A DNA stretch of 64,000 nt from Gemmatales bacterium. GTDB taxonomy: Bacteria; Planctomycetota; Planctomycetia; Gemmatales; HRBIN36. Shown here piece after piece: positions 9,275-27,491 of this stretch (the first letter of the stretch is position 1; every line of letters begins with the position of its first letter). The notes beneath the pieces are model-generated. The model did no database searches and was not told the origin of the DNA. It saw only the letters and a list, made by a program, of their open reading frames with translations. Position numbers and translations under genes: made by a program. Location: assembly GCA_041640595.1 (NCBI GenBank), contig JBEPZY010000001.1, positions 288,001 through 352,000 of the forward strand. Direction: 5' to 3'.

Positions 9275-12200
9275 ATGATCCAGGTAGGCGACTGGGTGCG
9301 GATTGACCCGTATCCAGAAAAGGCGGAAGTCTTTGAAGTTCGGCAACAAGGTGGGCACGTGGTGCTGGGCATAATCTTCCTGGTCTCGCAAAAGGCGCAG
9401 CGAATGGTGTTCACGCCCGAGGAACTGGCGCAGAGAGTTCAGCGTCTGCCCAAACTCGGGGAGCGTTTCGAGCAAGACAGCTTGCGAACGCGTGAACCGT
9501 TCGTGCTTTTCCTGGAGGCGCTGCGCATGCGTCTGGCGTACACGTTTGATCCGCATTATGCGGTGAGCGTGACGCAGGTGGACCTGCTGCCCCATCAGGT
9601 GGACGCCGTCTATGGCCACATTCTGCCGCTGCCCCGCATTCGCTTCTTGTTGGCGGACGACCCGGGACTGGGCAAGACGATCATGGCGGGATTGGTGCTG
9701 AAGGAACTGAAGGTGCGCGGCGCAGTTCGTCGGACTCTGCTGGTGGTCCCTGCTCACTTGCAGGATCAATGGCAGCGGGAAATGCGCGACTGGTTCCGCG
9801 AGGACTTTGTCCCGCTGCGTCGGGAGCTATTGCAGAACCTGTACGCGACGGACTTTTTCGAGCGGCACGCTCAGGTGCTGGTGTCGTTGGATTTTGCCCG
9901 GCAGGTGGATGTCCGCGAGCTATTGGCGCGTCAGTCCTGGGACTTGCTGATTGTGGATGAAGCGCACAAACTGTCGGCGACCCGCTACGGGCAGAGAATT
10001 TTCAAGACGCAACGTTACCAGCTGGGCGAAGCCCTGGCCCCTCGGGCCACGCATCTGCTGTTGCTGACGGCCACGCCGCACAAGGGGGATGACGATGCGT
10101 ATTTCCTGCTGCTCAACCTGCTGGAGCCCCGTTTATTTGCAACGGCCGAGCATTTGAAGCAGGCAGCGCGCAGTGAGGGGCTTCCATTTGTACTGCGGCG
10201 TAGTAAGGAGCAGGTTACCGATCTGGAGGGACGCAAGCTGTTCCGCCGCCGCGAGGTGCAGAGCCTGGGTATCACCCAGAGCGAAGGGGAGAAGCAACTT
10301 TACGAAGCGGTCACCCAGTATGTCCGCCGCTGGTACGCTGCCGTTTCCGGCAAGACCGACCGGAAAAGTCGTAACGTGGCCCTGGCTCTGACGGTGCTGC
10401 AACGCCGACTTTCTTCCAGTCTGTTTGCTGTGCGGGAGTCGCTGCGTCGTCGCGGGGCCAAACTGCAGAATCTCCTGCAGGAATGGGAGCGTCGGCTCCA
10501 GGAGAACGAGTTGCCGGAATGGGACGAGGAGACCGAGCAGGACCTGGCCGAGATGACCTCCCAGGAGTGGGAAGGGTTTCAAGAGCGGCTGGAAGGAATC
10601 ACCGCTGCCCGGAACCCCGAGGAGTTGCGGGAGGAACTGGGCGAACTCAAGGAACTGCTTCGCCTGGCGCTGGAAGTGGAGAAAGCAGGTGAGGAAGCCA
10701 AAGTGCAGGAATTACGCCGCGTCATCGAGGAACGGTTGCGGCATCATCCCGACGAGAAGTTGCTGATTTTCACCGAATTCAAGGATACGCTGTCAGCGCT
10801 GGAGCAGAAAATCCGGAGCTGGGGCTTTCCTTGCGTGAGCATCCACGGGCAGATGTCGCTGGGGGACCGCATCGAAGCGGAGCGGCGTTTCCGGGACGAA
10901 GTGCAGGTGATGGTCGCCACCGATGCCGCCGGCGAGGGCATCAACCTGCAGTTCTGCCGACTCATGGTCAACTACGATCTCCCCTGGAACCCCAATCGGC
11001 TGGAACAGCGTATGGGACGCATTCATCGTTACGGACAGCAGCGGGATTGTTATGTCTTCAATCTGCTGTATCCCGAAACCCGCGAAGGCGAGGTGCTGCA
11101 GCGGCTCATGGAGAAACTGGAACGGATGCGAGAACGCCTGGGTGACAGCGTGTACGACGTGATCGGCACCTTGCTCGAAGGGGTGCGGCTGGAAGAACTC
11201 CTGATGCAGGCCATTGTCCAGGGCCCATCCGGCGAACTGGAGCGTGTCCTTGATGTGGACCTGGGGCAACGACTCGAGCAATACTGGCAAACGCTCCGGG
11301 AAAACGCCCTGGCTGGCCATTACATTGACCTTACCACCGTTCAGAAAAACGAGACGGACTCGCTCTTGCGTCGGCTGGTGCCCTGGGATGTCCAGCGCTT
11401 TACCCAACTGGCAGTGCCGACCGTGGGCGGGCAGATCAGCGAGGACCGTCGCCAACGCCAGGTCTTTCGCCTCAGCGTGCCCAGAGAGTTCCTCAAGCAA
11501 CACGGCCTGCAGAACGAGTCGTTCGCCCGTGGTCTGCGGATTGCCTTTCAGCGGGACGTGGCACGACGGGCCGATGCTGAGTTCTTCGCTCCAGGTCATC
11601 CCTTGCTCGAAGCCCTCACCGATCACTTCCTGAATAAGAACCGCCCTGTCCAGGCCATCCTGGTGGATGAGCAAGGGCGTAAGGGTACACTGTGGCTGTA
11701 TCGGGTTCGGCTGCAGGACGGTCGGAGCCAGGCGGTTCTGGAACGGTTACTGGCGTTGTTTCACGATCTGACCAGCGGCGAGATACGCGAAGTGGACCCC
11801 CGCATGGTCTGGGAGCTGGCCAGTCCGCCGGATCACCTCGACCTGCCCCCGAACCTGCCCAATCTCCTGGACGAAGCCAGTCAGCGAACTCGAGAGCACG
11901 TGCTCATTTGCCTGCAGGCGCTGCAACACGAAGCGCAACAGCGGCGGGAGCGGGAATGCACCATCAAGCACGACTGGCTGAACCGCTCCTACACGTATCT
12001 CATCGCCGAGTCCCAGGGCAAACTTATCGAGTACCACCAGCGCCAGCAAGCCGGCGAAGACATGGCCGTCGCTATCCGTCAGGAAGAGGAAAATCTCAAA
12101 GTCCTCCTACGCGAGAAGGACGAGCGTTTGAAAGAAATCGAAAAGGAGCGGCAAATCACGTTGCTGGAACCGGAGCTGGAAGCGGTCGCCCTCATCCTGC

Positions 12201-12616
12201 CCAAAGCCGCAGCCACTTCAGCTACGCCGGCCGAAGACGAAGAAATCAAGCGTCGGGTCGAAGAAGCCGGCATGCGGTACGTGATGGAACACGAACGCCA
12301 AGAGGGCCGTCAGCCCCAGGATGTCAGCCGTGAATTCCGCGGCTACGATATTGAGTCCCGGTCGGATTCGGAGGTCCGCTATATCGAGGTGAAATCGCTT
12401 GCGACAACCGGCCCCTGGGAGTTCACGGTCCACGAGTGGCAAGTCGCTGAGCGCCTGGGCGCCCGCTACTGGCTTTATGTGGTGGAGCATGCCCTCACCA
12501 AGCCCCGGTTGCGCCCCTACGATAATCCCGCCGCCCGCTTCAAGCCCAAGCTTGTCATGGGGGTAGTGAAGATGGTGGTGGAAGAATCGGAACAGGGGGG
12601 CGAAAATGACGCCTGA
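9275..12616 (+). CDS. SNF2-family helicase with C-terminal DUF3883-type nuclease domain (operon 1)
   Basis: LLADDPGLGKT, VDEAH, TATPH, NYDLPWNPNRLEQRMGRIHR; C-terminal GYDI..YIEVK..EW. Confidence 0.92.
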   Translation: MIQVGDWVRIDPYPEKAEVFEVRQQGGHVVLGIIFLVSQKAQRMVFTPEELAQRVQRLPKLGERFEQDSLRTREPFVLFLEALRMRLAYTFDPHYAVSVTQVDLLPHQVDAVYGHILPLPRIRFLLADDPGLGKTIMAGLVLKELKVRGAVRRTLLVVPAHLQDQWQREMRDWFREDFVPLRRELLQNLYATDFFERHAQVLVSLDFARQVDVRELLARQSWDLLIVDEAHKLSATRYGQRIFKTQRYQLGEALAPRATHLLLLTATPHKGDDDAYFLLLNLLEPRLFATAEHLKQAARSEGLPFVLRRSKEQVTDLEGRKLFRRREVQSLGITQSEGEKQLYEAVTQYVRRWYAAVSGKTDRKSRNVALALTVLQRRLSSSLFAVRESLRRRGAKLQNLLQEWERRLQENELPEWDEETEQDLAEMTSQEWEGFQERLEGITAARNPEELREELGELKELLRLALEVEKAGEEAKVQELRRVIEERLRHHPDEKLLIFTEFKDTLSALEQKIRSWGFPCVSIHGQMSLGDRIEAERRFRDEVQVMVATDAAGEGINLQFCRLMVNYDLPWNPNRLEQRMGRIHRYGQQRDCYVFNLLYPETREGEVLQRLMEKLERMRERLGDSVYDVIGTLLEGVRLEELLMQAIVQGPSGELERVLDVDLGQRLEQYWQTLRENALAGHYIDLTTVQKNETDSLLRRLVPWDVQRFTQLAVPTVGGQISEDRRQRQVFRLSVPREFLKQHGLQNESFARGLRIAFQRDVARRADAEFFAPGHPLLEALTDHFLNKNRPVQAILVDEQGRKGTLWLYRVRLQDGRSQAVLERLLALFHDLTSGEIREVDPRMVWELASPPDHLDLPPNLPNLLDEASQRTREHVLICLQALQHEAQQRRERECTIKHDWLNRSYTYLIAESQGKLIEYHQRQQAGEDMAVAIRQEEENLKVLLREKDERLKEIEKERQITLLEPELEAVALILPKAAATSATPAEDEEIKRRVEEAGMRYVMEHERQEGRQPQDVSREFRGYDIESRSDSEVRYIEVKSLATTGPWEFTVHEWQVAERLGARYWLYVVEHALTKPRLRPYDNPAARFKPKLVMGVVKMVVEESEQGGENDA

Positions 12617-15600
12617 AGATCGCGTGCGTTTTCTCATTGAAAGGGCGATGCCGCTGCGGGAGTTGTCGGCGGAGGCGCGGCGGGAGAAGGCGATTCGCCA
12701 CGGGCACATCTCCACGCTGCATGTCTGGTGGGCAAGGCGGCCGCTGGTGGTCGCCCGCGCTGCTGTGCTTGGCGCCCTGCTGACCGACGAAGCTGACATC
12801 GCCCCCGATTTCGTCCAGAATCTCTGCCGCTGGGAAGTGCATGATGGCGATGCCGGCGGGCGTTCTCTGCTGAATGAGGCACGGGCGCTTGTGCGCCAGC
12901 GTTTCGGCTCGACGCCCCCGAAAGTGCTGGACTCGTTTGCTGGCGGCGGATCGATCCCGCTGGAGGCTCTGCGGTTAGGTGCCCAGGCCTTCGCCGTCGA
13001 ATACAACCCCGTCGCCTACCTCATCTTGAAGGCGACCATTGAGTTCCCACAACGGTTCAGGCAAGGGATTAGGGATGAGGGGCGAGGGACGAAGGAGGAG
13101 ATGCATCATGAGCATTCGGTCATATCAGGACCTGGCAATTTGGAAAAAGGCGATGCAATTGGTTGTTCAAGTGTATCACCTGACCAGGCGCTTCCCTCGG
13201 GAGGAAATGCACGGTCTGACCAGCCAAATGCGCCGAGCAGCAGTTTCCATACCCACAAACATTGCGGAAGGATGGGGGCGAGGGAGCAGGAAGGAATACA
13301 TCCAATTTCTGCGGATTGCCAGAGGTTCACTTCTGGAACTGGAGACCCTTCTGGCTATCTCCAGAAACCTTCGTTACCTGAGCCAAGAGGATATGCAGGC
13401 AAGACTGGCTCTGGTGGAGGAAATCAGCCGCATGCTCAGTGGGTTGATTGCGAGCCTGAAGAGAGGCATGAGGGCTTAGGGGCAGGGGTCAAATCTTCTC
13501 CCTCATCCCTCACCCCTCACCCCTCGTCCCTCACCCCTGCCCCCTCCCCCCTCATCCCTCACCCCTCATCCCTCACCGACGCTGTTCTTTTTTGGGGCAA
13601 CTGGGTGCTTGAGCAAGCACGAAGGGAATTATCGCCCTTCTATCCCTCTGTCGCCCCTCATCCCTCGCCCCTCACCCCTCATCCCTCGCCCGAAACGCCC
13701 ATCGCCTACATCTGGAGCCGCACCATTCGATGTCCGAACCCCGATTGTGGCTCGGAAATTCCGCTGTTCCGGCAGTTCTGGCTTGCTAGGAAAGGGACGA
13801 GGGATAAGGGACGAGGGACGAGGGATAAGGGACGAGGGGCGAGGAAGGAGATTGCGTTAGCCCCTGTCGTTGATAGAGAGCGAAGGTGCGTCAATTTCAG
13901 AATCGTGCAGCGTCAAGGGGATTCTTGGCAGGTCATCGATGATTCCTCGGAGAGGGATAAGGGACGAGGGATTGGGGGCGAGGAACGAGGGACGAGGAAT
14001 GAGGGACGAGGAATGAGAGACGAGGCGCCTCTTTTATCCCCCAACCCTCACCCCTCACCCCTCAGCCCTCATCCCTCACCCCTCACCCCTCACCCCTCCA
14101 CCCTCATCCCTAACTCCTTTGACCCATCAAAGGGCACCGTCAGCCGCGGGCATGCCGTCTGCCTGGTCTGCAACACCAGCGTTCGGGACTCCTACGTGAA
14201 GGCGGAAGCCCAGGCCGAGCGCATGGGGCATCGCCTCGTCGCCGTCGTGACCACCCGCGGTCGTGGGCATGGCCGCAACTACCGCCTGGCCACCGAAGAA
14301 GACCTCGCCGCCTTCCGCAAGGCCGAGCAAGCCCTGCAAAACCTCCTGCAAACCCCATCCCCTTGGGCTTTCGGGCTCAGTTGGGTGCCCGAGGAGCCAT
14401 CGCCCGGAACTATCGGACAAGGACCTTCGCAGCGGCCGAGTTATGGGATGACTACCTGGGGTAAGTTCTTCAATCCCCGCCAGTTGCTGGCGCTGTGCAC
14501 CTTCGGCAAGTGGGTGCGGGAAGCCTATCGGCAAATCCTGCGGCAAACCGACGACCCCGACTTCGCCAAAGCCGTCGCAACGTATCTGGCGTTTGCGTTG
14601 GATAAACTTGCGAATTGGCTGTCTTGCGTATCCCGGTGGGAAGTAACCTGGGAGATGCCTAAAGAGGCGCTAACTGGTCACAGGCTCGCAATGGTGTTCG
14701 ATTATGCAGAGGGCAACCCGACAACCGGAGATGTTGCTTCCTGGCCAAAAGCGCTGGGGTACCTAGATAGAGGTCTCCGAGCTCTTTCTTGGATGAAAAA
14801 TGTTGGAGCCGTAGTAAAGGGCTCGGCGGCCAGTTTGCCCTTCCCCGACAAGCATTTTGATGCCGTCATCATAGACCCGCCGTATGCCGACAATGTGCCG
14901 TATGCCGACCTTTCGGATTTCTTCTATGTCTGGCTGCGTCGGACAGTGGGCGACCTTTACCCGGAAGCGTTCGGCACCGAACTGGTGCCCAAAGAGGAAG
15001 AGGCGGTGGTCAACCCGGCGCGGTTTGGCGGGGGCAAGAAAGGGGAGGCGGTCGCCCGCCGCCATTACCAGCGGCTGATGCAGAAATCGTTTGCGGAAAT
15101 CTACCGCGTGCTCCAACCCGATGGCATGGCGGTGGTGATGTTCACCCACCGTTCGACCGAGGCCTGGGAACGCCTGATGCTGAGCCTCCTGGAGGCGGGG
15201 TTGTACCCGACCGCTTCCTGGCCGGTGCACACGGAGATGGAGGCCTCGACGCATCAGCGCGGCAAAGGAGCGATCCAGAGCACGATCCTGATGGCGTGTC
15301 GCCGCCGTCCGGAGAATGCCGGGGTCGGCTGGTACTCTCAGGTACGGGACGACCTCGAGCGGGTAATCCGGGAGCGGCTGGAAGCGTTCTGGCGAGCGGG
15401 CATCCGCGGGGCGGATTTCTTCGTTTCGGCCATCGGGCCGGCCGTCGGGGTCTTCGGCAAGTATCGCAAGGTCATGCACCCGGACGGCCGGGAAGTCACC
15501 GTCAGCGATCTGCTGGACGAAGCCCGGTCGCTGGTAACCCGGTTTGCCCTGGAACAATTACGCCTGTCCACGCTGGATGCTCCGACGCGCTTTTATGTGC

Positions 15601-16130
15601 TTTACCGGTGGGCCTACGGCGGGGCCGAGCTTTCCTTTGATGAAGCCAACAAACTCGCCAAGAGCGTCGGCGCGGAACTCGATGCCCTGGCCGGCGAGCA
15701 TCACCTGGTGGAACGCCGACAGGACAAGGTGCAGACGCCCGCCTTCGCCCGGCGGTTCCAGAACCTCGACTTTTGCAAACGCCTGCAGCAGGCGCTGGAT
15801 GATGGCCAGTTGCCACAGTTGCCCGAGATCGATCAGGTGCACCTGTTGCTGTACCTGTGGCGCAAAGGCGAGCGGGAAAATATCTCCGCCGTGCTCGGAC
15901 GTGCCGGCGTGATGAGCGAAGACCATCCGCTGTGGCGAACCGCCCAGGCACTTCTGGAAGTGCAGCAGAACGACCAGAAAGCCGACGAAATCGGCGAAGA
16001 GGTTACCGTCCTGGCGCAATTGCTGGGGAGCAAACGCGGTCTGTTACGCGAGGTCGAGCAGACCCACACCACCGCCTTGCAGCTGCAATTTTTCGACGAC
16101 ACCGTAACCCCCCGCCGCCGCAGACGCTGA
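12606..16130 (+). CDS. DUF1156 adenine DNA methyltransferase (operon 1) with large in-frame insertions
   Basis: HISTLHVWWARRPL, DSFAGGG (motif I), CPNPDC/CLVC Zn ribbon, DPPY (motif IV), YADLSDFFYVW. Confidence 0.9.
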   Translation: MTPEDRVRFLIERAMPLRELSAEARREKAIRHGHISTLHVWWARRPLVVARAAVLGALLTDEADIAPDFVQNLCRWEVHDGDAGGRSLLNEARALVRQRFGSTPPKVLDSFAGGGSIPLEALRLGAQAFAVEYNPVAYLILKATIEFPQRFRQGIRDEGRGTKEEMHHEHSVISGPGNLEKGDAIGCSSVSPDQALPSGGNARSDQPNAPSSSFHTHKHCGRMGAREQEGIHPISADCQRFTSGTGDPSGYLQKPSLPEPRGYAGKTGSGGGNQPHAQWVDCEPEERHEGLGAGVKSSPSSLTPHPSSLTPAPSPLIPHPSSLTDAVLFWGNWVLEQARRELSPFYPSVAPHPSPLTPHPSPETPIAYIWSRTIRCPNPDCGSEIPLFRQFWLARKGTRDKGRGTRDKGRGARKEIALAPVVDRERRCVNFRIVQRQGDSWQVIDDSSERDKGRGIGGEERGTRNEGRGMRDEAPLLSPNPHPSPLSPHPSPLTPHPSTLIPNSFDPSKGTVSRGHAVCLVCNTSVRDSYVKAEAQAERMGHRLVAVVTTRGRGHGRNYRLATEEDLAAFRKAEQALQNLLQTPSPWAFGLSWVPEEPSPGTIGQGPSQRPSYGMTTWGKFFNPRQLLALCTFGKWVREAYRQILRQTDDPDFAKAVATYLAFALDKLANWLSCVSRWEVTWEMPKEALTGHRLAMVFDYAEGNPTTGDVASWPKALGYLDRGLRALSWMKNVGAVVKGSAASLPFPDKHFDAVIIDPPYADNVPYADLSDFFYVWLRRTVGDLYPEAFGTELVPKEEEAVVNPARFGGGKKGEAVARRHYQRLMQKSFAEIYRVLQPDGMAVVMFTHRSTEAWERLMLSLLEAGLYPTASWPVHTEMEASTHQRGKGAIQSTILMACRRRPENAGVGWYSQVRDDLERVIRERLEAFWRAGIRGADFFVSAIGPAVGVFGKYRKVMHPDGREVTVSDLLDEARSLVTRFALEQLRLSTLDAPTRFYVLYRWAYGGAELSFDEANKLAKSVGAELDALAGEHHLVERRQDKVQTPAFARRFQNLDFCKRLQQALDDGQLPQLPEIDQVHLLLYLWRKGERENISAVLGRAGVMSEDHPLWRTAQALLEVQQNDQKADEIGEEVTVLAQLLGSKRGLLREVEQTHTTALQLQFFDDTVTPRRRRR
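13064..14112. repeat. Complementary tracts of 7-bp repeats (GGGAYGA / TCAYCCC type)
   Basis: G-rich ~13064-13095, 13793-13844, 13953-14025; C-rich ~13498-13576, 13651-13692, 14036-14112. Confidence 0.9.
13108..13479 (+). CDS. Four-helix-bundle protein (23S rRNA intervening-sequence protein / Avd-like), nested in +1 frame inside the methylase
   Basis: SYQDLAIWKKAM, FPREEMHGLTSQMRRAAVSIPTNIAEG, FLRIARGSLLELET; AGGAGGAG RBS 7 nt upstream. Confidence 0.92.
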   Translation: MSIRSYQDLAIWKKAMQLVVQVYHLTRRFPREEMHGLTSQMRRAAVSIPTNIAEGWGRGSRKEYIQFLRIARGSLLELETLLAISRNLRYLSQEDMQARLALVEEISRMLSGLIASLKRGMRA

Positions 16131-16159
16131 ACCCTGTCCACCGCGACACCCCAACACGA

Positions 16160-16385
16160 GCAATCACCGCGAAAAACCTTAGTGCTCCCTGGTGCCTGAG
16201 CGGTTATAATACCGCAACAGGAAGGTACGGAACGCACGAAGGAACACCAACGAAATATGCGGTATCCCTTTGTGTCTTCGTGCCCTGCTGGTTAAAACTC
16301 AATTACGAAGACACCAGGACGCGAAGAAACCTCGAGAAAACCCTTCGTGTTGCGTGGTGTCTTTGTGTCCTGGCGGTTACAACCC
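16160..16385. repeat. Degenerate intergenic inverted-repeat cluster
   Basis: Alternating CACGAAG/GAAGACAC and CTTYGTGTC...GGTTA tracts between the methylase and ATPase genes. Confidence 0.5.
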
Positions 16386-16406
16386 TTCAGCGACGGGGGA
16401 AGAAGC

Positions 16407-19031
16407 ATGGCGAGGCAGTCAGCTCTGCGGGTCTGGGAGGTGTGCGAACCGCATCGGGATGTGTTTTCGCGTGATCCGGACCCATCGCTGTTCGCTATCA
16501 GTCTGCACCACGTGATGCGAGGCTCGGCGGATCGGGATTACACTGACCCGGAGCGCTTCTTCGCCCGGACCTGCATGACGCGAGCCCTGTCGAACTTGTT
16601 GCAGCGAGTGCTCGGTCGGCTGGCGGGTCAGGGTCGCGGGGCACCGGTGTTGCGGCTGGAAACGCCATTCGGCGGCGGCAAAACCCACACCATGACAGCC
16701 CTCTGGCATATCGCCCGGTACCCGGAAGTCTGCAGCGAGCAGGAATCGCTCCGACCCATCCTGGAGGCGTTGAACCTGCGCAGCGTTCCGAACGATCTCC
16801 GCGTGGCCGTGCTCGATGGCCGGGGACTTGACGCCCGCGAACGACGTACCGACGACGGATTGACCGTCCGCACCCTGTGGGGCGAGCTGGCGTATCAGCT
16901 CGGCGGTCGGACGGGTTATGAGATGCTGGCCGATGCCGACCAGACGCGGACCTCCCCCGGCGGGGCCTTGCTCACCGAGTTGCTCCGCCGCTATCAACCC
17001 GCGCTCATCCTTATGGACGAAGTGCTCGACTACCTCATCAAGGCCCGGGCGGTGTCGGTGGGATCGAGCAATCTGATGGAACAGACCGGCACCTTCCTGG
17101 GAGAACTGACCTCAGCCGTCAGCGCGGTCCCCCAGAGTGCGCTGGTGCTAGCGTTGCCCGCCTCCTCGCTGGAAATCCCCGCCGAGAACCAGGAATCCGC
17201 CGAACGGCTCTTCCAGTACGCCAAGAAAGTGCTGGGACGAATGGAACTGGTGGAGACGCCCGTCGCTCAGGATGAAGTGTTCGAGGTGCTGCGCCGTCGC
17301 CTGTTTCAACGGGTCGCCGAAGAACGCGACCGCAAAAAAGCTGTCGAGGCTTTCCGCGCTTACTACGAAGAGTATGCCCGCTTTTTCCCCGATCGGTTGC
17401 GGTCGCCGGATTATCGCGAGCGCATGCTCCAGGCCTATCCCTTCCATCCCGAACTGGTGGATTTGCTCTATGAGCGGTGGGGTCCGCATCCGCAGTTTCA
17501 GCGTACCCGCGGAGCGTTGCGGCTGCTGGCGCTGGTGCTGCGGCGGATCTGGCAGCAACGACCGGGTTCGGCGCTGTTGATTCAGCCCCACCATATTGAT
17601 CTCCATGACCGCCATATTCGCGGCGAAGTGGTGCGGCTGCTGGACAGCAGTTGGGAAGCTATTGTCACGGGCGATGTCCTCCGACGGGCGGAAGAACTGG
17701 AACGGCAATTGGGCGGCGAGTACAGTCGCGAACAACTGGCCCGAGGAACTGCCAGTGCCGCTTTTGTGTACAGCATCTCCGCCGCCACCCGCGATGTCGG
17801 CGCCACCGAAGAGGAAATCCGCACCGCTTTGCTCCGCCCGTCGATCAACCCGGCGATGGTCTCCGAGGTGCTCGGACGCTTACGCGAACGACTCTGGTAT
17901 CTTCGTTACCGCGACCACCGCTATTTCTTCACAGCCAAACCGAACCTGAACAAGGTCATCCTGGACTTTGAGAACGAAGTTACCGACGAGCAGGTCGAGA
18001 AAGCCCTGCGGGAGCGTATCACCCAGTGCACTGGCAAGGCTGGCGAGGGGTTTCAACTGGTGATCGCTCCGGCAGAGCCCAAACTCGTTCCCGACCGGGC
18101 TCAACCGACTCTGGTTGTCCTCCCGCCGGATGTCCACCAGCCGCAGCAGTGGATGGAACAAGCGGTTCAGGCCGCCGAAAGCGGTATCCGCGTCAACAAA
18201 AACATGCTCATCTTCCTCGTGCCGGAACCGACGCAAATCTCCGCTTTGCGATCCGCCATTCGTCGCTGGCTCGCCCTCAAAGCCGTCTCCGACTCCCATT
18301 CCTTCAAAGAAATGGACAGCGATGACCGGGAACAGGTGAAGTTGCAACTCAAGGACAAGGAAGCGGAACTGGAGGCCCTCCTCCGCCGAACCTACCAGGA
18401 GATTTACCGTCCCAGCAACGGCAGTGTCAAGCGCATCACCGGCATCGGCCCCGAAACCATCAAGGCCAAAACACTCGCTGCGTTCGTCGAGGAAACGCTG
18501 AGAAATAAAGGCGAGCTGGTGGATAGCGTCGCCCCGGAGTATCTCAAAGATGTGCTGCGGATCGACCAGCAACAGCAGGTACCGCTGGCACAGGTGAGCA
18601 ACCTCTTCACCGGCGTAACCAGCCAACCGGTGCTCAGGAATCCCGAGGAGGCGGTTCGCCGGACCGTTCAGCAGGGCGTGCAGCAGGGGCTGTTCGCTGT
18701 GCGTGTCGGCGAGCAGGTTTACTCGCGTCAGGAAGTGCCCGATGACATCCTGAAACGCAAGGACGTGGTGCTCGTCCCGCCACCTGATGATAAGAAGCAA
18801 CCACCTCCGCCGCCGGCCCAGCCTAAGCCCCTCACCCTGCGGGTGCGAACCAGCGCCAGCGTGTTCTATCCGATTACGGTTGTGGCTAAGCAGTTGCAGC
18901 AGTTGAATGACGCGACGATTGTGCTCGAAGTCCGCGACCCGTCGGGCAAACTGTCCACCATGCAGGCGGAGATCGACAAACTCGTGCGCGACTACGGTTG
19001 CACCTGTGAGTGGGTCTCATCTACTGAGTGA
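16407..19031 (+). CDS. DUF499 family ATPase (operon 1)
   Basis: TPFGGGKTH Walker A, LILMDE Walker B, YPFHPEL, FQRTRG; ATG start at 16407 chosen. Confidence 0.9.
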   Translation: MARQSALRVWEVCEPHRDVFSRDPDPSLFAISLHHVMRGSADRDYTDPERFFARTCMTRALSNLLQRVLGRLAGQGRGAPVLRLETPFGGGKTHTMTALWHIARYPEVCSEQESLRPILEALNLRSVPNDLRVAVLDGRGLDARERRTDDGLTVRTLWGELAYQLGGRTGYEMLADADQTRTSPGGALLTELLRRYQPALILMDEVLDYLIKARAVSVGSSNLMEQTGTFLGELTSAVSAVPQSALVLALPASSLEIPAENQESAERLFQYAKKVLGRMELVETPVAQDEVFEVLRRRLFQRVAEERDRKKAVEAFRAYYEEYARFFPDRLRSPDYRERMLQAYPFHPELVDLLYERWGPHPQFQRTRGALRLLALVLRRIWQQRPGSALLIQPHHIDLHDRHIRGEVVRLLDSSWEAIVTGDVLRRAEELERQLGGEYSREQLARGTASAAFVYSISAATRDVGATEEEIRTALLRPSINPAMVSEVLGRLRERLWYLRYRDHRYFFTAKPNLNKVILDFENEVTDEQVEKALRERITQCTGKAGEGFQLVIAPAEPKLVPDRAQPTLVVLPPDVHQPQQWMEQAVQAAESGIRVNKNMLIFLVPEPTQISALRSAIRRWLALKAVSDSHSFKEMDSDDREQVKLQLKDKEAELEALLRRTYQEIYRPSNGSVKRITGIGPETIKAKTLAAFVEETLRNKGELVDSVAPEYLKDVLRIDQQQQVPLAQVSNLFTGVTSQPVLRNPEEAVRRTVQQGVQQGLFAVRVGEQVYSRQEVPDDILKRKDVVLVPPPDDKKQPPPPPAQPKPLTLRVRTSASVFYPITVVAKQLQQLNDATIVLEVRDPSGKLSTMQAEIDKLVRDYGCTCEWVSSTE

Positions 19032-19127
19032 CACGTCGTTCTCATCCCGCAGTGGCCTCGGTTGTCCCCATCGCAATCGCTCCACTCAGGCATCTGCTGA
19101 GTGACACACCGTTGTCAACCCGCAGTG
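19018..19127. repeat. 37-bp direct repeat pair with 36-bp unique insert over the ATPase stop codon
   Basis: CATCTACTGAGTGACACGTCGTTCTCATCCCGCAGTG (19018) / CATCTGCTGAGTGACACACCGTTGTCAACCCGCAGTG (19091), 32/37 identical. Confidence 0.9.
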
Positions 19128-19555
19128 AGTCTGATTCATCCCCAGTTTTTGATTGGGCCGGCTATTTCGCAGCACCTGACGAGAGAATGGTTTGTCGAAT
19201 GTCCTATTTTCCAGGGCCTGAGGCTCGCCCGTTCGCATCATACCAGCGTTCGGCCAAGGCGATCGGGTCTAACCGGGTGCCTGGCAGTCGGCAGCCTTTT
19301 CCAAAAACCGAAGATGCTCAAACAGATCTTGCATCTCCTGCGATCTGTGCGGTGCTTCGAGACAAGGAGACCTTTTCAAAAACCTGAAGAGGCTCTGCAT
19401 CTTCCAAGTGCCCCGAAAAACAGCGTCAGGATTGACGCCACCCCGACCGACACCGTGTCTTCCATGCTCCAAGTCTCCGCCTAAGAACAGACCATCCGAC
19501 GTAACCGTTATCATTCAGACGCCTTACCTCCAGCGGGGCTCCCGTCAAAACCGGG

Positions 19556-20041
19556 GATAAGTCAGAACTGGAGCCTTCAGGTAATCGCGGACGGGGTAGG
19601 GAACGCCGATAATGCGGATTTAGAGTCTGGGATAAGTCAGAACTGGGCCATCAGGCAATCGCGGACGCGGTGGGGAACGCCGATAGTGCGGATTTAGAGT
19701 CTGAGATAAGTCAGAACAGGGGCCTTCAGGTAATCGCGGGCGGGGTAGGGAACGCCGGTAGTGCGGATTTAGAGTCTGAGATAAGTCAGAACTGGGGCCT
19801 TCAGGTAATCGCGGACGCGGTGGGGAACGCCGATAGTGCGGATTTAGAGTCTGGGATAAGTCAGAACTGGGGCCATCAGGCAATCGCGGACGGGGTAGGG
19901 AACGCCGATAGTGCGGATTTGGAGTCTGAGATAAGTCAGAACTGGGGCCTTCAGGTAATCGCGGACGGGGTAGGGAACGCCGATAGTGCGGATTTAGAGT
20001 CTGAGAGAAGTCAGAACTGGGGCCTTCAGGTAATCGCGGAC
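19556..20041. repeat. 75-bp tandem repeat, ~6.5 copies
   Basis: Units GATAAGTCAGAACTGGGG... start at 19556, 19631, 19705, 19780, 19855, 19930, 20005. Confidence 0.95.
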
Positions 20042-20111
20042 CGTCGGCTTGCAGGAAGCGCCGACACTATTCTGCCAATCAAACGGCCGGCCAGGCATTC
20101 CAACCGAAGGA

Positions 20112-20134
20112 ACTACCCCCGGCAGGACTCGAAC
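20112..20134. repeat. att core: duplicated 3' end of tRNA-Arg
   Basis: ACTACCCCCGGCAGGACTCGAAC identical to 52512-52534. Confidence 0.93.
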
Positions 20135-20545
20135 ATCCTGCGAATTTCCCAGGAAAATGCGAGGTTGAGGATTCCGGCGCAGCAAAATCCGCAGCACTTA
20201 GCCGCAGTTTCGAGGAAGAAACCAAGCATAACTGTCCCACTGCCGCAAGCCGCAAGCCTGCCCAGCCGCAAGCGTCTGAACTTGGTAACCGATTGGCCGA
20301 GGCACTGCTGATTATCGCATCACTATCCGAAAGCGAACGCCAGTTATTGATCCGGTTGCTGGAAAGTTTCGGCAAAACCAAGCCATAACCGGCCGGACCC
20401 ATCCCTAGTTTCGGCTGAAAGCTCCGCTGGAACGCTAACTGGCTCTTTCTAACTTACTCATTATCTGCCGGACTTATCCCCAGTTTTGACTGAGCGTCCC
20501 CAGGACATAAGTCGTTGGGATGGCGTTTATTTCTCCGGATGGCCA

Positions 20546-20772
20546 GTTTTCGGGGCACATGGAGGACGGTAAACGACACTGCTTATAAGACACGCACGTG
20601 CGTTAAACCCGGTTTTTGGGGCACAGGGAGGGCAGTGAACTCAGGCTCCAGATAATAATCCTTGCCACGAGCGGACGTTTTTCGGGGTATGCGAAGGACG
20701 GCGAACTTGTTAAAGGTCCTGGTGGTCCGCCAACTTCATCTCATTTTTCGGGGTACATGGAGGACGGTGAAC
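20546..20772. CRISPR. Degenerate CRISPR-like mini-array, 4 repeats / 3 spacers, no cas genes in window
   Basis: 29-30-bp repeats ~GTTTTCGGGGYACATGGAGGACGGTGAAC at 20546, 20612, 20677, 20743; unique spacers of 37, 36 and 36 bp. Confidence 0.65.
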
Positions 20773-21735
20773 CCAGCCGAGTTTCTTCGGGGCTTACAAA
20801 AAGGCTCGCCGAACGCCAAGCATACGGTCGGCTGCAATCGGCTTGACCGAACATTGCAACGATGTGAGCGCCCTACCCGAGGTCGGAAAATGGAACTTTT
20901 CGTTAGCCATTTTGTGGTCAGGTGTTGCGAATTAGCTTGCCCCCGCCACAACTGGCGATAGGTCAGTGCTTGCCCACCTACTGGGAGAAACTGCTGCGGC
21001 GATTGCGACTCCGCAAGGTCCCCGCATCCGTCCACATCCTCCGCAGTTCGACAGAGCTGGCAATACACGGCGTTGATCGGCGAGTGAAAAGTTCTGCCTT
21101 ATCCTGCCGCTTCGGACAACGGGCAACCGAAACATCGCCCGCTTCGTTGTCGGTTGCCACACCGCACCTGCGAGACCGGCAGCAGCGGCATGCTCCATCG
21201 AGCCATCGTCCGCTCCGGTGGGAACTGCTAGTCTATGCATGGATTAGCCGTTTGTGCAGGCTAGAGCGGCAAAACGGCGGTGGCGAAACCACGAAGGAAC
21301 GCAAGGCGGGGAAGCAGCAGCGCGAAGAATTTCCAGCACAGCCAGGCTCAGCGGACAAGGACCGTGCAAGCCGAGAACAAGTTCCTTACGCAGATCGAGA
21401 TCGAGGATGAATACTGCGACTCAGCGGCCAAACAACGCGCATGCTGGGAGAGCGTCCATCCAGGAAAGAGCACAGCGTCAGGTGCGGCGCCATAATTTCG
21501 ACGGTGCCCGATTCTCCTCGCTCTCATTGTGCGATACGCCAGTGTGAAGTGCGGCGTTATGAATACAACACACACTTAGGCCGTGCATTGGCCATGACCG
21601 GCGAAGTATAATTGACCCGCTTCGATCCGCTCCGTGGCATCAAGTACGCCGGCAAATTCCAAACGTGAACGTGCCGGCACGATTGACAGGGGAAGGACAT
21701 CACTCGTGGGAAGCACGTCTGGGGGGAGCTGCGAT

Positions 21736-24700
21736 ATGCAAGGGGAGCGTAGCGGTGAGAAGACTCTGAAACCCGACGATGTTCTTCAGGGGGATTTCTG
21801 GCCTGAGCCTGTACGCATTGTGAGGCTGGTCCGGTTCGGCGAACGCACTAAGATTGAAGCCGTCGGTACTAAGACCAGGCAATTTTACGAACACATTCTC
21901 AGAGCGCAAGACCTGGGACAGGTGCGAGTGGTTACCGAAACGGGACGGGATTACGGCGGACGTGGCGAAGCTTTTTTCCTGGTCATGGAAGCACACCGCA
22001 TCCGCTCGGCTTATCAATTTGATCCGCTCTTTGCCGTCACCGTTTCCCAGGTGGATCCCCTGCCGCACCAGATCGAGGCAGTCTATCACTACATCCTGCG
22101 TAATCCGCGCATTCGCTTCCTGTTAGCCGATGATCCTGGGGCAGGCAAAACCATAATGACGGGTTTGCTGCTCAAGGAACTGAAATACCGCGGACTGGTA
22201 CAGTGGACGCTCATCGTGGTGCCGGGTCATTTGCGAGACCAGTGGCTGAGGGAAATGAAAGAACGTTTTGGTGAAACCTTTACCGCAGTTGACCGCAACA
22301 TCATCAATGCCACCTGGGGGCGCAACGTCTGGCAAGAGCAGCCCCAGATTATCACCTCCATGGACTTTGCCAAACAGAGCGATGTGATGGCGACTCTGAG
22401 CGAGGTACACTGGGATTTGGTGATCGTGGATGAAGCCCATAAGATGGCTGCCTACCGTTATGGCGAAAAAACCGCACGCACTGAACGCTACCGTTTGGGC
22501 GAACTCCTATCGCGGAAAAGCAACTTTTTGCTGTTTCTAACTGCTACCCCTCATCGCGGTGATCCCGAGAACTTCCTGCTGTTCCTTGACCTGCTTCAGC
22601 CCGGTTTCTTCGCGAACGCCGACCTGCTTCAGGAATCCGTGCGCAACAAGGATAATCCCCTCTACCTTCGCCGGTTGAAGGAGGACCTTAAAGATTTTCA
22701 GGGGCGACCGCTCTTTCCGCCCCGTCGTGTAACCACGAAACCGTACCGGCTGAACGACGAGGAAAAGCGGCTTTACAACGCTGTGACCGAATACGTGGAA
22801 AAGTCGTACAACAAGGCCCTGGCAGCGGAAAAGCGAAATGTGGCGTTCGCTCTGTTGATTCTGCAGCGGCGGTTGGCATCCAGCGTCCGGGCAGTGCGTC
22901 GCTCACTGGAACGCCGTAAACAGCGACTGCAAGAGTTGCTCCAGTTGGGCAAATGGCTCGCCGAACGCGACAGCATTGACGAGGAAGAGCTCGAAGACGC
23001 ACCCGAAGCCGAACGCCTTAAGCAGGAGGAAGAGTTGCTGGAGCGGCTCACCGCGGCCGAAACCCGTGAGGAATTGCAGGAGGAGATCGCCAACCTGGAT
23101 CAGTTAATTCGCCTTGCCCGTGACGCCGAACGCCACGGTATCGAAACCAAGCTCAACGAGCTACGCAAGGTAATGGAAGACGAACATATCCAGCTCAGCG
23201 GCGAAAAACTCCTTGTTTTTACCGAATCACGCGAGACGCTGGAATATCTGGCGGAGAAACTCAAGGAGTGGGGCTATACCGTAAGCACTCTGCACGGTGG
23301 TATGGACCTGAATCAGCGCATTCGTACCGAGCATGAGTTCCGCGAACGAGCGCAGGTGATGGTATGCACTGAAGCGGGCGGGGAAGGCATCAACCTGCAG
23401 TTTTGCTCGCTGATGGTCAATTACGACATCCCTTGGAACCCCAACCGTCTGGAACAGCGTATGGGGCGGATTCATCGCTACGGCCAGCAAAAAGAGGTGC
23501 ACATCTATAACCTGGTCGCCGCCGATACCCGTGAAGGCAAGGTACTGGAGGCGCTGTTTCGCAAGCTGGAACGGATTCAGGAAGCGCTGGGCAGCGACCG
23601 CGTTTTCGACGTCATCGGCGAAGTGATGCCGGGACGCAGCCTGCAAGAACTGATCGTCGAAGCGATCGCCAACCGGCGCACCCTGGAGGAAATCGTGGCC
23701 GCTATCGAAGCGGTGCCCGATGAAGAAGCGGTGCGTAAGGCACGCGAAGCCGTACTGGAAGGTTTGGCCACCCGGCACATTGACCTGCAAAGCGTGCTGG
23801 GCGAAGAGCGACGCGCCCGCGAGAACCGTCTGGTGCCGGAATACATTGAGCGCTTTTTCGAACGTGCCTGTCAGTTTTTGAAAATCCCTCTGGAACGCCG
23901 CCGTGATGGACTCTGGCGCGTCCCCAGCGTGCCCTACGAAATTCGCCATGTTTCACAGGAATTTCGGCACCGCTTCGGTGAGGTTTTCCGGGAATACAGC
24001 AAAGTGGCGTTTGACAAAAAGATGGCTCGTGAGCAGAACGCGGTCCTGGTAGCGCCAGCCCATCCATTGCTGGAGGCGATCATCGAACGCCTGCTCACCG
24101 ATTGCGCCGACGATGTTCGCCGCGGAGCCGTATTTACCGACCCCGACGGTCGGCTTAACGGTTGGCTCTTCTTTCTGGAAGGGGAAATCCGCGACGGCAC
24201 CAACCAGGTGGCCGGCAAGCATGTTTTTGCTCTCTACCGCTCCGTTGCCGGCGATCTGCGGCTCGTCAACCCATCCATTCTCTGGGACCTGAAACCGGAT
24301 GGCGAACGGCAGGAGATGCACCCCCAGCTAGGCGAGGAAGAAGTTATCGCCTACGCCATTGAACACGTTCTGGAGCCGTATCGTGCGGAATTGCTGAAAA
24401 GGCGTGAGTGGGATGCCGCTATCAAGCGTAAATACGGCGTGCGTTCGCTGGAGCAAATGATTCTGGACTCGGAGGCGAAACTGATTGACTACGAAACTCG
24501 CCGGGCCAAAGGCGAAAACTTTCCCGACGTGGAAATACTCAATGAGCAGCGGAAGAAGGAAGAGCTTCAGGCACGCAAACAGGCGCTGGAAGAACAGATC
24601 CGCCGTCAGACCAGTCTGCTGCCGGCCAGCCCGAAGGTGCTGGGTGTGGTGCGCGTCCTGCCGCAAGTCGCTACCGATGACGACATGCGATCCGATGCCG

Positions 24701-25065
24701 AGATCGAAGCCATCGGCATGCAGGTGGCCATGCAGCGCGAGCGGGAACGCGGACGCTTGCCCGAGGATGTTTCGGCACAAAACCTGGGCTACGACATTCG
24801 CTCGACCAGCCCCGCGGGCGAAGTGCGCTACATTGAAGTCAAAGCCCGCGCCACCACCGGCCCCATAGCGCTCACCCCGAACGAGTGGCTCATGGCGCAA
24901 CGCCTCGGCAATGACTACTGGCTTTATATCGTCGCGCATGCTGCCAGCGAGCCACACCTGCATACTATTCAAAACCCCGCCGCTAAATTGCGCCCCGAAG
25001 AACAGGTCGAAACCGTGCGCTATGTCATAAAAAACTGGCAGGAGGTAAGCGATGAAGCCACGTGA
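21736..25065 (+). CDS. SNF2-family helicase with DUF3883-type domain (operon 2)
   Basis: LLADDPGAGKT, VDEAH, NYDIPWNPNRLEQRMGRIHR, GYDIRS..YIEVK..NEW; paralog of 9275-12616; start uncertain. Confidence 0.92.
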   Translation: MQGERSGEKTLKPDDVLQGDFWPEPVRIVRLVRFGERTKIEAVGTKTRQFYEHILRAQDLGQVRVVTETGRDYGGRGEAFFLVMEAHRIRSAYQFDPLFAVTVSQVDPLPHQIEAVYHYILRNPRIRFLLADDPGAGKTIMTGLLLKELKYRGLVQWTLIVVPGHLRDQWLREMKERFGETFTAVDRNIINATWGRNVWQEQPQIITSMDFAKQSDVMATLSEVHWDLVIVDEAHKMAAYRYGEKTARTERYRLGELLSRKSNFLLFLTATPHRGDPENFLLFLDLLQPGFFANADLLQESVRNKDNPLYLRRLKEDLKDFQGRPLFPPRRVTTKPYRLNDEEKRLYNAVTEYVEKSYNKALAAEKRNVAFALLILQRRLASSVRAVRRSLERRKQRLQELLQLGKWLAERDSIDEEELEDAPEAERLKQEEELLERLTAAETREELQEEIANLDQLIRLARDAERHGIETKLNELRKVMEDEHIQLSGEKLLVFTESRETLEYLAEKLKEWGYTVSTLHGGMDLNQRIRTEHEFRERAQVMVCTEAGGEGINLQFCSLMVNYDIPWNPNRLEQRMGRIHRYGQQKEVHIYNLVAADTREGKVLEALFRKLERIQEALGSDRVFDVIGEVMPGRSLQELIVEAIANRRTLEEIVAAIEAVPDEEAVRKAREAVLEGLATRHIDLQSVLGEERRARENRLVPEYIERFFERACQFLKIPLERRRDGLWRVPSVPYEIRHVSQEFRHRFGEVFREYSKVAFDKKMAREQNAVLVAPAHPLLEAIIERLLTDCADDVRRGAVFTDPDGRLNGWLFFLEGEIRDGTNQVAGKHVFALYRSVAGDLRLVNPSILWDLKPDGERQEMHPQLGEEEVIAYAIEHVLEPYRAELLKRREWDAAIKRKYGVRSLEQMILDSEAKLIDYETRRAKGENFPDVEILNEQRKKEELQARKQALEEQIRRQTSLLPASPKVLGVVRVLPQVATDDDMRSDAEIEAIGMQVAMQRERERGRLPEDVSAQNLGYDIRSTSPAGEVRYIEVKARATTGPIALTPNEWLMAQRLGNDYWLYIVAHAASEPHLHTIQNPAAKLRPEEQVETVRYVIKNWQEVSDEAT

Positions 25066-25423
25066 GATTCCCCAATCGGTGCGGCTGGCCTTGGAGGAAC
25101 TCAAAGCGTCGCTCGTCGAACTCTATGGCGAGCGGCTGGAGGGGGTCTATCTCTACGGCTCGTACGCGCGAGGCGATTTCACCGAAGATTCGGACATAGA
25201 TGTGCTTATCGTTCTCCAGGGCGATGTCAAGCCAGGAGCCGAGATTACCAGGCTCAGCCCGCTTCTGTCGGAAATATGTTTGCGCCATGATGTGCTCATA
25301 AGCACATATCCTGTGCCAGCAACATGCCTAAGGGAGCGGCAAAGTCCTTTGTTCATCAACATACGTCGTGAGGGCGTGCCGATGGGCGAGTTTCTCGAAA
25401 GAACCAACCATGCGGGAGCGTGA
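25052..25423 (+). CDS. Minimal nucleotidyltransferase (MNT)
   Basis: LYGSYARGDFTEDSDIDVLIV, C-terminal IRREG. Confidence 0.88.
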   Translation: MKPREIPQSVRLALEELKASLVELYGERLEGVYLYGSYARGDFTEDSDIDVLIVLQGDVKPGAEITRLSPLLSEICLRHDVLISTYPVPATCLRERQSPLFINIRREGVPMGEFLERTNHAGA

Positions 25424-25835
25424 GGTGGTGCGCATAGTTGCTGAGCGGCTGAAAAGCGAAGGTGCCCGGCACCTTCAGGTGCGTTACGCTCGTGAACCTG
25501 GCCCGGATATCGAGGCCGTGTTGCCTAACTCCCATCGTCAGTTGTTTATCGAAGCCAAGGGGGACGTAAAATCGGCCGAATCGGCGCTCGGTGTTGCCCT
25601 CTACCAGATCCTTTGCCGCTATGATGGCCAGGCCGTTTGCGCAATTGCCGTGCCCTTCTCCAGTCGTTATCAAGACCTTCTGAGAAAAGTCCTGGCTGGC
25701 CTTGGGCAGTTGCGCGTGCATGTGCTCCTGGTCAGGGAGGCCGAAGTCTGGCATCTTCCGCCCAACGCAAAAGGATTTCTGCCGACCAAACCTTCTTCGC
25801 TCGTCGAGGCTCTGGAAAATGAGCAAAGACATTAA
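25410..25835 (+). CDS. Small putative PD-(D/E)xK nuclease-fold protein
   Basis: GPDIEA...LFIEAKG motif; overlaps both neighbours. Confidence 0.6.
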
Positions 25836-27393
25836 GCTGCGGCTCATTGAAGTAGATTTCCCGTTGAGGAAGGTTTCCGAAGAATCGGTGCGGGAAAAGA
25901 ACATTCGCCACGGGCACATTTCCACGCTGCACATCTGGTGGGCCCGCCGACCGCTGGCCGCTTCCCGTGCTACCGCACTGGCGGCACTTCTGCCCGATGA
26001 CCACAACCGCCGCGACGAGCTGCTCCGGCTCATCGAGGAGCTTGCTCCCTGGGAAGCCGTTTCCGGTAAAGCTTCGAGGAGCCAATCCCTTCAGAAAGCC
26101 CGCGAGCTTCTCCGCGAAGCCTTTGGCGGACGTGCTCCGCGGGTGCTCGATTGCTTCGCCGGTGGCGGGGCCATTCCCCTCGAAGCGCTGCGCCTGGGCT
26201 GCGAAACCTATGCCCTCGACTACAACCCCGTCGCCGTCCTTATCAACAAAGCTGTCCTCGAATTCCCGCAGAAGTTCGGACGACCTGACCAGGTCACAAC
26301 CGTACCGCTCCCGCCTGCTTCGCAAAACCAGTCGCGGACCGATGGGCGACTTCTCGACGTGGAAGTCGAGCCTGTCGAAAATCCCCTGCTTCAAGCGGTC
26401 TCCGCCTGGGGAGCGTGGGTGTTAGAGGAAGCACGCAGGGAATTAGAGCCATTCTACCCGAAGGACCACGATGGTTCGATTCCGGTCGGCTACATCTGGG
26501 CGAGGACCTTGCCGTGTCAGAATCCCGCCTGCGGCGCCGAAATCCCGCTCATGCGCCAGACCTGGCTGGCCAAAAAAGATAAGAGGAAGGTTGCACTCAA
26601 GCTCATCCCGAACCGGGGAGCACGGCGCGTGGAGGTCGAAATCGTCGGGGCGGACGGCCGTCCGATTGATTTTGACCCCGAAGAGGGCACCGTCTCGCGC
26701 GCTCACGTGCGCTGCCCGCTCTGCGGCGGCACGTTTGACGACAAGACGACCCGCCGCCTCTTCCGCGAGGGCAAATCCGGCCAGCGTCTGATGGCGGTCG
26801 TGCTCCACCATCCGAAGCGCACAGGCAAGACCTACCGCCTGCCCAGCAAACGCGATCTGGAAGCCTACCACGCCGCCGAAACCGCACTGGAACACAAACG
26901 GGCCCGCCTCCGCGAAGAATGGGGCATCGAACCCGTGCCGGATGAGCCGTTGCCGCCGCTGGAGACGCTCGGCTTCCGTGTCCAGCGCTATGGTCTCACC
27001 CGCTGGGGCGACCTGTTCAACCCGCGGCAGAAGCTGGCGCTGATCACCTTCGCCGAGAAAGTCCGCCAGGCCCACGCCCAAATTCTCTCCCAAGGCGCCG
27101 AGCCGGAGTTCGCCAAAGCGGTGGCAACGTATCTGGCGTTGGTTGTCGATGAATTAGCTCGCTTTACCTCGGTCCTCAACCCTTGGAAAGTCGATGCCGA
27201 AGCTATTGTTCATGTTTTTGGCAGGCAAGCACTACCTATGCTCTGGGATCACTGCGAAAACGTTCCCGTCGGCTCGCACGGTGGAACATGGGAGCACCGC
27301 CTTACGGAAATAATTGCAGTGGCTGAAGCGCTATACGTACATGAAAGGTCCAACCTCAGTGGCATCGCTGCGGGAGAGCGAACGACTCAGTGA
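25819..27393 (+). CDS. DUF1156 methyltransferase, N-terminal part (operon 2)
   Basis: [31 protein letters not shown]; stops before DPPY. Confidence 0.88.
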
Positions 27394-27481: not shown

Positions 27482-27491
27482 AGGAGAGAGA

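Follow-up and report, generated by a model that had tools for sequence, protein, structure and literature searches.

In a 64,000-nucleotide stretch of a Gemmatales bacterium genome (GenBank assembly GCA_041640595.1, contig JBEPZY010000001.1, positions 288,001 to 352,000; hereafter the window), the gene for an HmaB-like adenine methyltransferase contains a second, complete gene in another reading frame. The nested gene encodes a four-helix-bundle protein of the 23S_rRNA_IVP family (PF05635; IVP below) and lies in a cassette bordered by complementary arrays of a 7-nt (heptamer) repeat. We found that the methylase frame is open across the entire cassette, and that this open frame is real and beyond chance. 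Our preferred interpretation, to which we assign a probability of about 0.7, is read-through dual coding, which would let an anti-phage methylase gene carry the heptamer-armed IVP cassette and stay active. A ribosome translating the methylase frame would read straight through the cassette, and the resulting HmaB would have an unstructured loop of 168 residues at a site that tolerates insertions. The four-helix protein would come from other ribosomes, which start in the +1 frame at an internal Shine-Dalgarno sequence. Same-strand dual coding in which one gene lies wholly within another for 120 codons is regarded as rare in cellular bacteria.

Results

A complete IVP gene within an uninterrupted methylase gene

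The methylase open reading frame (ORF) is uninterrupted (Table 1). The nested ORF lies entirely within it, offset by 502 nt from the methylase start and hence in the +1 frame, and its ATG is preceded by AGGAGG 9 nt upstream. An initial annotation of the window had described just this arrangement, a complete 123-aa gene with its own ribosome-binding site in an unbroken methylase ORF, and we agree with it. The nested protein matched PF05635 with 139.8 bits (cut-off 33.8) over model positions 1-106 of 106, and TIGR02436 with 135 bits (cut-off 24). Its solved relative, by sequence match, is the homopentamer XCC0516 (PDB 2GSC, E = 2.7e-26). Scores against models of Avd, a protein of diversity-generating retroelements (DGRs), fell below the cut-offs (NF033474, 39.5 bits, cut-off 80; bAvd, 38.2 bits, cut-off 40). 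The product had been called IVP/Avd-like; the IVP assignment holds and the assignment to DGR Avd does not. It is the only PF05635 or TIGR02436 member found in the genome. No nuclease, recombinase or reverse transcriptase gene was found in the cassette, PF05635 and bAvd being the only Pfam matches of the nested protein, and the peptide that the cassette encodes in the host frame has no Pfam match.

We delimited the insert with six methylase orthologs from other genomes (48-71% identity). The site is empty in five of them (L242-L244, L246 and L247) and holds 7 extra codons in the sixth (L248), so we take the true insert to be the 168 codons given in Table 1. The initial annotation had compared 173 codons here with 38 in a paralog. 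Between new anchors we recovered the same 135-codon excess (178 versus 43), but the paralog has an insert of its own. The insertion site is tolerant: apart from the 7 codons in L248, it holds ~35 codons in the paralog and, in P0045, an IVP cassette with different repeats. The insert in L248 is a short palindrome translated in frame, and another such palindrome is translated elsewhere in the L243 methylase; both are presumably REP-like.

The cassette region of HmaB is predicted coil between helices 135-150 and 323-345 in a weak AlphaFold model, with a predicted local distance difference test score (pLDDT) below 50 for residues 152-320. We take the sequence at 12930-12950 to be the motif that binds S-adenosylmethionine (SAM) and that at 14874-14885 to be the DPPY motif of the methylase.

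The host frame is open beyond chance

A stop in the host frame requires T at the third position of a nested-gene codon, followed by AA, AG or GA. T was found at 0 of the 20 third positions at risk, compared with 23 of 74 elsewhere in the nested gene. The host frame stayed open in only 183 of 100000 synonymous shuffles (P = 0.0018); correcting for a general avoidance of T before AA, AG or GA gave P = 0.006-0.015. The same frame is open in 142 of 3049 gene windows of 124 codons from this genome (4.7%). By itself, this single case is suggestive and not decisive.

We gathered a sample of IVP genes by protein similarity alone (130 fetched from the best 150 of 638 matches, and the best 80 of 208 metagenome matches). 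Partial, broken, N-containing and duplicate genes were removed. The remaining 190 include five that are the window gene and its close relatives. Six of the other 185 sit within long genes, and the same frame is open in all six. The hosts are three members of one PF01555 methylase family, a leucyl-tRNA synthetase (LeuRS, with HVGH and KMSKS), DnaE2 and an Eco57I-like methylase. Among the 179 free-standing IVP genes the frame is open in 3, all GC-rich, and in none of the 118 that are under 50% GC; four nested IVP genes have a GC content of 42-46%. None of the 190 genes is open in the other frame of the same strand. Nesting always occurs in this one frame because each T-ending codon has a C-ending synonym, so that silent changes alone can clear the stops.

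Stop-making T occurred at 0 of 92 sites in five nested lineages, compared with 359 of 1702 sites in 80 GC-matched free-standing genes. T usage in four other contexts did not differ significantly between nested and free-standing genes, which confines the depletion to stop contexts. The comparison is partly circular; four of the five lineages were identified as nested independently, by collinear homology of both flanks. Ninety-five of the 190 loci could be assessed in this way, and no distant homolog among them lies within a broken host. In the initial annotation, homologous insertions that usually break the host frame, together with an inactive methylase, were named as the finding that would make the open frame chance. 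As a hint only, the peptides read in the host frame had a slightly lower hydrophobicity over nested than over free-standing IVP genes (p = 0.036, n = 5).

Two further groups of candidates were rejected. Long antisense frames over 15 + 4 IVP genes were mostly shadows of high GC content, and none had collinear flank matches. Five loci with both flanks matching one protein proved to be non-collinear tandem paralogs or repeats.

Purifying selection on the nested gene and the methylase flanks

We compared two filled relatives, L037 and L040, using the proportions of synonymous (pS) and nonsynonymous (pN) differences. In five conserved blocks of the methylase flanks, pS was 0.39-0.60 and pN 0.03-0.05. 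In the IVP frame, pS was 0.32 and pN 0.05. The host frame across the insert had a pS of 0.095 and a pN of 0.126, that is, no constraint. L117, L127 and L144 repeat this pattern. Between the window and L040, 27 of 39 changes are at IVP third positions, and the 36 codons that differ change 11 residues in the IVP frame and 32 in the host frame. Host-frame peptides drift yet stay stop-free between relatives, with conservation too low for an alignment-based scan. Indels among the window, L037 and L040 are all whole codons (7, 14, 14, 43 and 1), and those in the arms are mostly multiples of 21 nt. These comparisons indicate that the nested protein and both methylase flanks are under purifying selection, and that the host-frame peptide is selected only against stops. 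Together with the absence of stop-making T, this supports dual coding, one of the two branches that the initial annotation had left open.

The open frame could instead be luck, or a left-over in a methylase that is dead or decaying. A frame open in 4.7% of the genome's windows, and in 1 of 32 GC-matched free-standing IVP genes, lends some weight to luck, and defense genes are dispensable. We regard this explanation as quite unlikely: the motifs of the methylase are intact, its flanks are under purifying selection between filled alleles, it has taken up five repeat insertions in frame, and the same arrangement is found in LeuRS and in 23 diverged methylases (below). A swap of its specificity segment also argues against decay. 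The L033 allele is 99-100% identical to the window over the cassette but only 41-46% identical at 14600-14799, which is probably a swap of a probable specificity segment, as expected for an active system. Separately, we observed that two short variable segments of the methylase (14500-14800 in the window) are exchanged among near-identical alleles, and that several database records (P0001-P0025) start or stop there; specificity shuffling is a possible explanation. The MANTIS methylase likewise has a strain-variable segment, as described in the available text of a preprint (10.64898/2026.09.23.753747).

Identity between the window and L037 is 95-98% over 13000-13399, 94% over the 13600s and 61-83% in most other parts. 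Their pS is 0.08 in IVP, 0.06-0.20 in adjoining codons and 0.54-0.80 in distant blocks. With L040 as reference, we infer that this genome recently acquired the filled allele from an L037-like donor, through homologous recombination over a patch of ~13000-13950. Co-conversion of flanks during patchy spread, as expected of a ShiLan-type insertion (Discussion), and ordinary recombination among defense alleles would both give such a low-pS flank pattern. A DNA search of 30 related genomes found short pieces of the cassette and no whole copy.

Nested IVP genes in other hosts

A search with the host-frame peptide found 20 proteins, 13 of them longer proteins with the peptide inside them. The others were one close relative, two repeat proteins and four short ORFs standing alone; the repeat proteins and short ORFs were set aside. 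Eight of the 13 have methylase or DUF1156 Pfam matches, one is a histidine kinase, one a truncated flippase and three are unmatched. With a profile search we found another 23 diverged members of one methylase family that carry the cassette, open, at one site. An IVP gene was found in 0 of 36 other loci of the HmaB methylase family of the window, some of which cover the gene only partly. Viral contigs gave a single 13-residue match and nothing usable.

On a tree (27 of 187 rows), the nested IVPs are dispersed, with different hosts, sites and repeat units. The nested state changes 5 times, and a single nested clade was recovered in 0% of 200 bootstrap trees. These results suggest independent origins of nesting.

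Several of these loci have features of their own. The LeuRS gene with the nested IVP (L072:2445-5372, + strand), in the same frame relation, contains two further in-frame solo heptamer inserts. In the PF01555 methylase family (L117, L127, L144; P0047-P0070), the nested IVP has stayed at one site across a long divergence; its host-frame peptide is less random-looking than that of the window, and it is possible that it has been domesticated. In L233 and L181 a long reading frame, upstream (447+ codons) or downstream, is in frame with the IVP domain; these are possibly fusions.

Heptamer arrays and their predicted fold

The G-rich heptamers before the nested gene and the C-rich heptamers after it, reported in the initial annotation as able to pair, are both present and do pair in the predicted fold (z = -3.39; 0 of 100 shuffles equally stable; pair probabilities in agreement). 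The predicted arm stem closing the cassette is 30+ bp. At 37 °C the AGGAGG is predicted to be partly paired with the right arm. The stem may mask the internal ribosome-binding site, and host-frame ribosomes would melt it. In a 1.2-kb fold the left arm is predicted to prefer the array at 14045-14111 over the right arm.

Four further arrays of the same heptamer lie in the host gene (Table 1), the last two, at 13952-14025 and 14045-14111, forming a hairpin without a gene. Copies are degenerate (65-88% matches). Every one of the 6 in-frame positions in the G arrays reads CGA, and 7 of 13 out-of-frame positions read TGA, TAA or TAG (the copies are not independent). The sequence of the last right-arm unit doubles as the codons for S322-L323-T324, at the start of a host helix, and L323 is present in six of six orthologs. 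An exact pattern search of the genome found no C-rich unit elsewhere among the matches listed; the genome's common heptamer is a different one. Dozens of arrays of another heptamer family (CCACTGA / AGTGGCC type) occur across contigs C1-C9, where no second IVP gene was found, and two short arrays with other units lie at 32598-32645 and 20242-20273.

Complementary repeated 6-mers (at least 3 copies) flank 50 of the 179 free-standing IVP genes, compared with 2 of 310 control places. Long-range pairing was predicted across 161 of 174 IVP genes and 45 of 87 control stretches, a weak control.

These repeats bear on the other branch of the initial annotation, in which pairing of the arms would loop out the cassette and cause it to be skipped on most transcripts, by a bypass like that of T4 gene 60 or by cleavage and religation, the open frame serving as a safety net. 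The closing stem and the 6-mers around free-standing genes fit such skipping, and the interval 13065-13577 is 513 nt, a multiple of three. We nevertheless consider skipping unlikely. The total absence of stops in all nested cases demands regular read-through, and removal from the RNA is unsupported because it would relax selection against stops. A cut at the stem base would delete L323. For bypass, neither a stop after a take-off site nor matched codons at the base of the stem were seen on inspection by eye. For religation, the precedent in rRNA is cutting by RNase III without ligation (PMC4990558, available text). Probably the insert is not cut out, and the enzyme is produced with a long floppy loop.

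RNA-library contigs and excluded element classes

RNA evidence consisted of contigs of relatives assembled from three RNA runs; such contigs drop rare forms and may include DNA. Contigs X14 and X16 (two runs) bridge the left junction, and X16 bridges the right. No cassette-skipping joint was found in the contigs of the three runs, a weak negative. One apparent joint, 13091-13815, was a repeat misplacement: its short side has 21 letters, and the true continuation lies between. Contig depth was higher over the cassette than over the flanks and was not used, one figure per contig being unable to rank gene parts.

Known classes of intervening elements did not account for the cassette. We found no group I or group II intron core, only sub-threshold hairpin Rfam matches in 12500-21500. 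There is no intein signature: no Hint domain was found, the insert starts with Gly and lacks a terminal His-Asn, and the host-frame peptide is not conserved. There was no rRNA match at the cassette, which lies in a methylase ORF. These results, with the continued selection against stops, speak against the suggestion that the cassette is removed or bypassed at the RNA level.

Observations that weigh against read-through

A number of observations weigh against our interpretation. Four of the nine close loci have a broken methylase, as would be expected of a decaying gene. L038 has one TGA within the cassette, on a contig with Ns and a further shift. L034-L036 have a 1-nt deletion in the second array; the three are identical and perhaps one population. 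P0023 and P0027 also depart from the frame at an array, the P0046 host terminates at the cassette, and the L121 host has frameshifts both upstream and downstream of the cassette. The collinear-flank test overlooked L121. Protein searches can find open frames only, and the absence of broken hosts is partly survival bias, such hosts being lost fast. A single clade of nested IVPs was not rejected (approximately unbiased test, p = 0.086). The HmaB model is weak (mean pLDDT 58.6, 13 sequences in the alignment), a low pLDDT is expected for any insert that cannot be aligned, and a structure search with the model found nothing in the PDB at E 0.001 and otherwise just weak rows of generic methyltransferases. 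Finally, skipping would explain how a cassette from low-GC donors first survived in a gene, as its free relatives mostly carry 3-15 stops.

Some of the breaks at close loci may be assembly errors, and some may be real loss or phase variation. If phase variation were the main role of the arrays, gain or loss of a base or a heptamer would turn the methylase off and leave the IVP gene on. The frameshifts at arrays in L034-L036, P0023 and P0027 fit such a switch, which we consider highly improbable: the arrays are too degenerate to fit it well, assembly errors in metagenomes accumulate in repeats of this kind, no indel was seen at the arrays in contigs from one DNA run, and stop avoidance is left unexplained.

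The operon and its neighborhood

The operon order is helicase-methylase-ATPase, with best matches to HmaA, HmaB and HmaC, so that by its genes alone it qualifies as an Hma system (Table 1).

Table 1. Features of the Hma-type operon and of the cassette in its methylase gene (positions in the window).
Feature	Position	Strand	Basis	Remarks
HmaA-like SNF2 helicase	9275..12616	+	PADLOC HmaA E 1.7e-179; Pfam	C-terminal NOV_C domain; first operon gene
HmaB-like DUF1156 adenine methyltransferase	12606..16130	+	ORF, Pfam, PADLOC	Host gene, 1174 aa
Cassette	13065..13568	+	Alignment with empty orthologs	504 nt = 168 host-frame codons (HmaB residues 154-321)
Left arm	13064..13100	+	Repeat analysis, fold	G-rich heptamer array running into the ribosome-binding site
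Shine-Dalgarno-like AGGAGG of nested gene	13093..13098	+	Sequence	
Nested four-helix-bundle gene (23S_rRNA_IVP / TIGR02436)	13108..13479	+		123 aa, +1 frame
Right arm	13500..13577	+	Repeat analysis, fold	C-rich heptamer array, 11.1 copies
Solo C-rich heptamer array	13651..13691	+		In frame; common to relatives; site of the 1-nt deletion in L034-L036
Solo G-rich heptamer array	13793..13844	+		In frame; predicted coil; 42 nt longer than in relatives
G-rich + C-rich array pair (gene-less hairpin)	13952..14111	+		In frame; predicted coil; 43 codons longer than in relatives
Variable segment	14500..14800	+	Comparison with L033	Probably target recognition (function inferred)
HmaC-like DUF499 ATPase	16347..19031	+	PADLOC HmaC E 8.6e-147	Third operon gene

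One defense island contains two complete, adjacent Hma-type operons (9275-19031 and 21634-32545). The methylase of the second (25819-29903) is split into ORFs 25819-27393 and 28623-29903, with the SAM motif in the first half and DPPY in the second. The splitter is two tandem MNT-HepT toxin-antitoxin pairs (27492-28648), the second HepT being internally shortened. Between the operons is a tandem array of a 75-nt unit (19556-20041; 6.5 copies, 92%) with no Rfam match. Other tandem arrays lie at 39326-39650 (92-nt unit, 3.5 copies, 97%) and 52705-53189 (141-nt unit, 3.4 copies, 92%).

The split paralog raises the alternative that the host methylase also works as two pieces, its transcript being cut in the stem or ribosomes restarting past the IVP stop to make a separate C-terminal subunit. 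In L034-L040 an ATG or GTG of the host frame overlaps the IVP stop (ATGA/GTGA), which would suit restarting. The window, however, has no such start past the IVP stop, the overlap is a by-product of the TGAGG repeat, and a split would not require stop-free read-through from the N-terminal part. We consider a two-piece enzyme very unlikely. Under the read-through interpretation, both proteins would be made and the methylase would be active.

Discussion

The closest parallel to the cassette that we found is in phages. The ShiLan domain and the Pacc40 gp60 insertion are out-of-frame HNH genes within phage methylases (Arsenault et al. 2025, PMC11855218). In the available text of that report, as here, a methylase-gene insert is stop-free in the host frame, carries a complete gene in another frame and forms a predicted disordered loop, without an intron or intein signature, and both cases are computational only. 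The cassette is not a ShiLan member. Its cargo is a four-helix bundle and no nuclease, complementary heptamer arms close the insert, and the hosts are cellular defense genes. Unlike ShiLan, IVP cassettes are also mostly intergenic (179 of 185) and are nested in LeuRS and DnaE2 as well.

The protein family itself is known from rRNA. ORF-bearing intervening sequences (IVSs) in 23S rRNA, with S23p, have been described in Coxiella and Leptospira (PMC4990558). According to the available text of that source, they share with the cassette the PF05635 family, a similar size (428 nt, compared with 504 nt here) and complementary stem-forming borders, predicted in our case. In contrast to the rRNA elements, the cassette lies in a protein-coding gene, where RNase III excision without ligation would ruin the mRNA frame. 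The nested ORF has a good ribosome-binding site and is under purifying selection, whereas the Coxiella ORF is decaying.

DGR Avd has a related fold and belongs to the same family neighborhood (PMC10053308, available text). The nested protein differs in falling below both Avd cut-offs and in having HmaA and HmaC as neighbors, and the genome's sole PF00078 match is ~56 kb off; a template repeat was not searched for. That reverse-transcriptase match (C1:357261-357923) lies in a 564-codon frame 5 kb past the window end. The host operon, with its helicase, methylase and ATPase, resembles the Hma and other DUF499-centered, BREX-related defense systems.

Heptamer repeats are a recurring puzzle in prokaryotes, and the cyanobacterial STRR is another unexplained example. 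The TAACTGA repeats of Beggiatoaceae, also unexplained, are like ours degenerate 7-mer arrays in both orientations, sometimes within ORFs (PMC4679880). The arrays of the cassette's heptamer differ in occurring within a single gene, around the only IVP gene of the genome. The text of the Beggiatoaceae paper, so far as available, does not contain the terms four helix, intervening or methylase. We did not find IVP genes nested in protein genes described in the literature searched, which included few subscription journals and no supplements; family-model comments or tables in such sources may already mention the association with repeats.

A broader idea, doubtful but worth stating, is that IVP cassettes are widespread mobile elements without a nuclease, transposase or reverse transcriptase. 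A pentameric IVP protein would act on its own heptamer-armed hairpin, spreading the cassette and solo arms into neighboring DNA, and the arms would permit enough ribosome skipping for a new intragenic insertion to persist until silent T-to-C changes cleared the host frame. If true, this would explain nesting in an essential gene such as that for LeuRS from donors that normally carry 3-15 stops. It would also tie an orphan protein family to unexplained bacterial heptamer repeats.

Nesting was seen in 6 of the 185 genes sampled (~3%) from a very common family, in methylases and a tRNA synthetase, and always in the frame that can be cleared silently. Gene callers display only one of the two genes, so that such cases are hidden in databases as odd low-complexity loops. 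The arrangement offers a direct handle on the function of PF05635 and of the heptamer repeats: a single silent change could shut the host frame or the nested gene separately, with the methylome as the readout.

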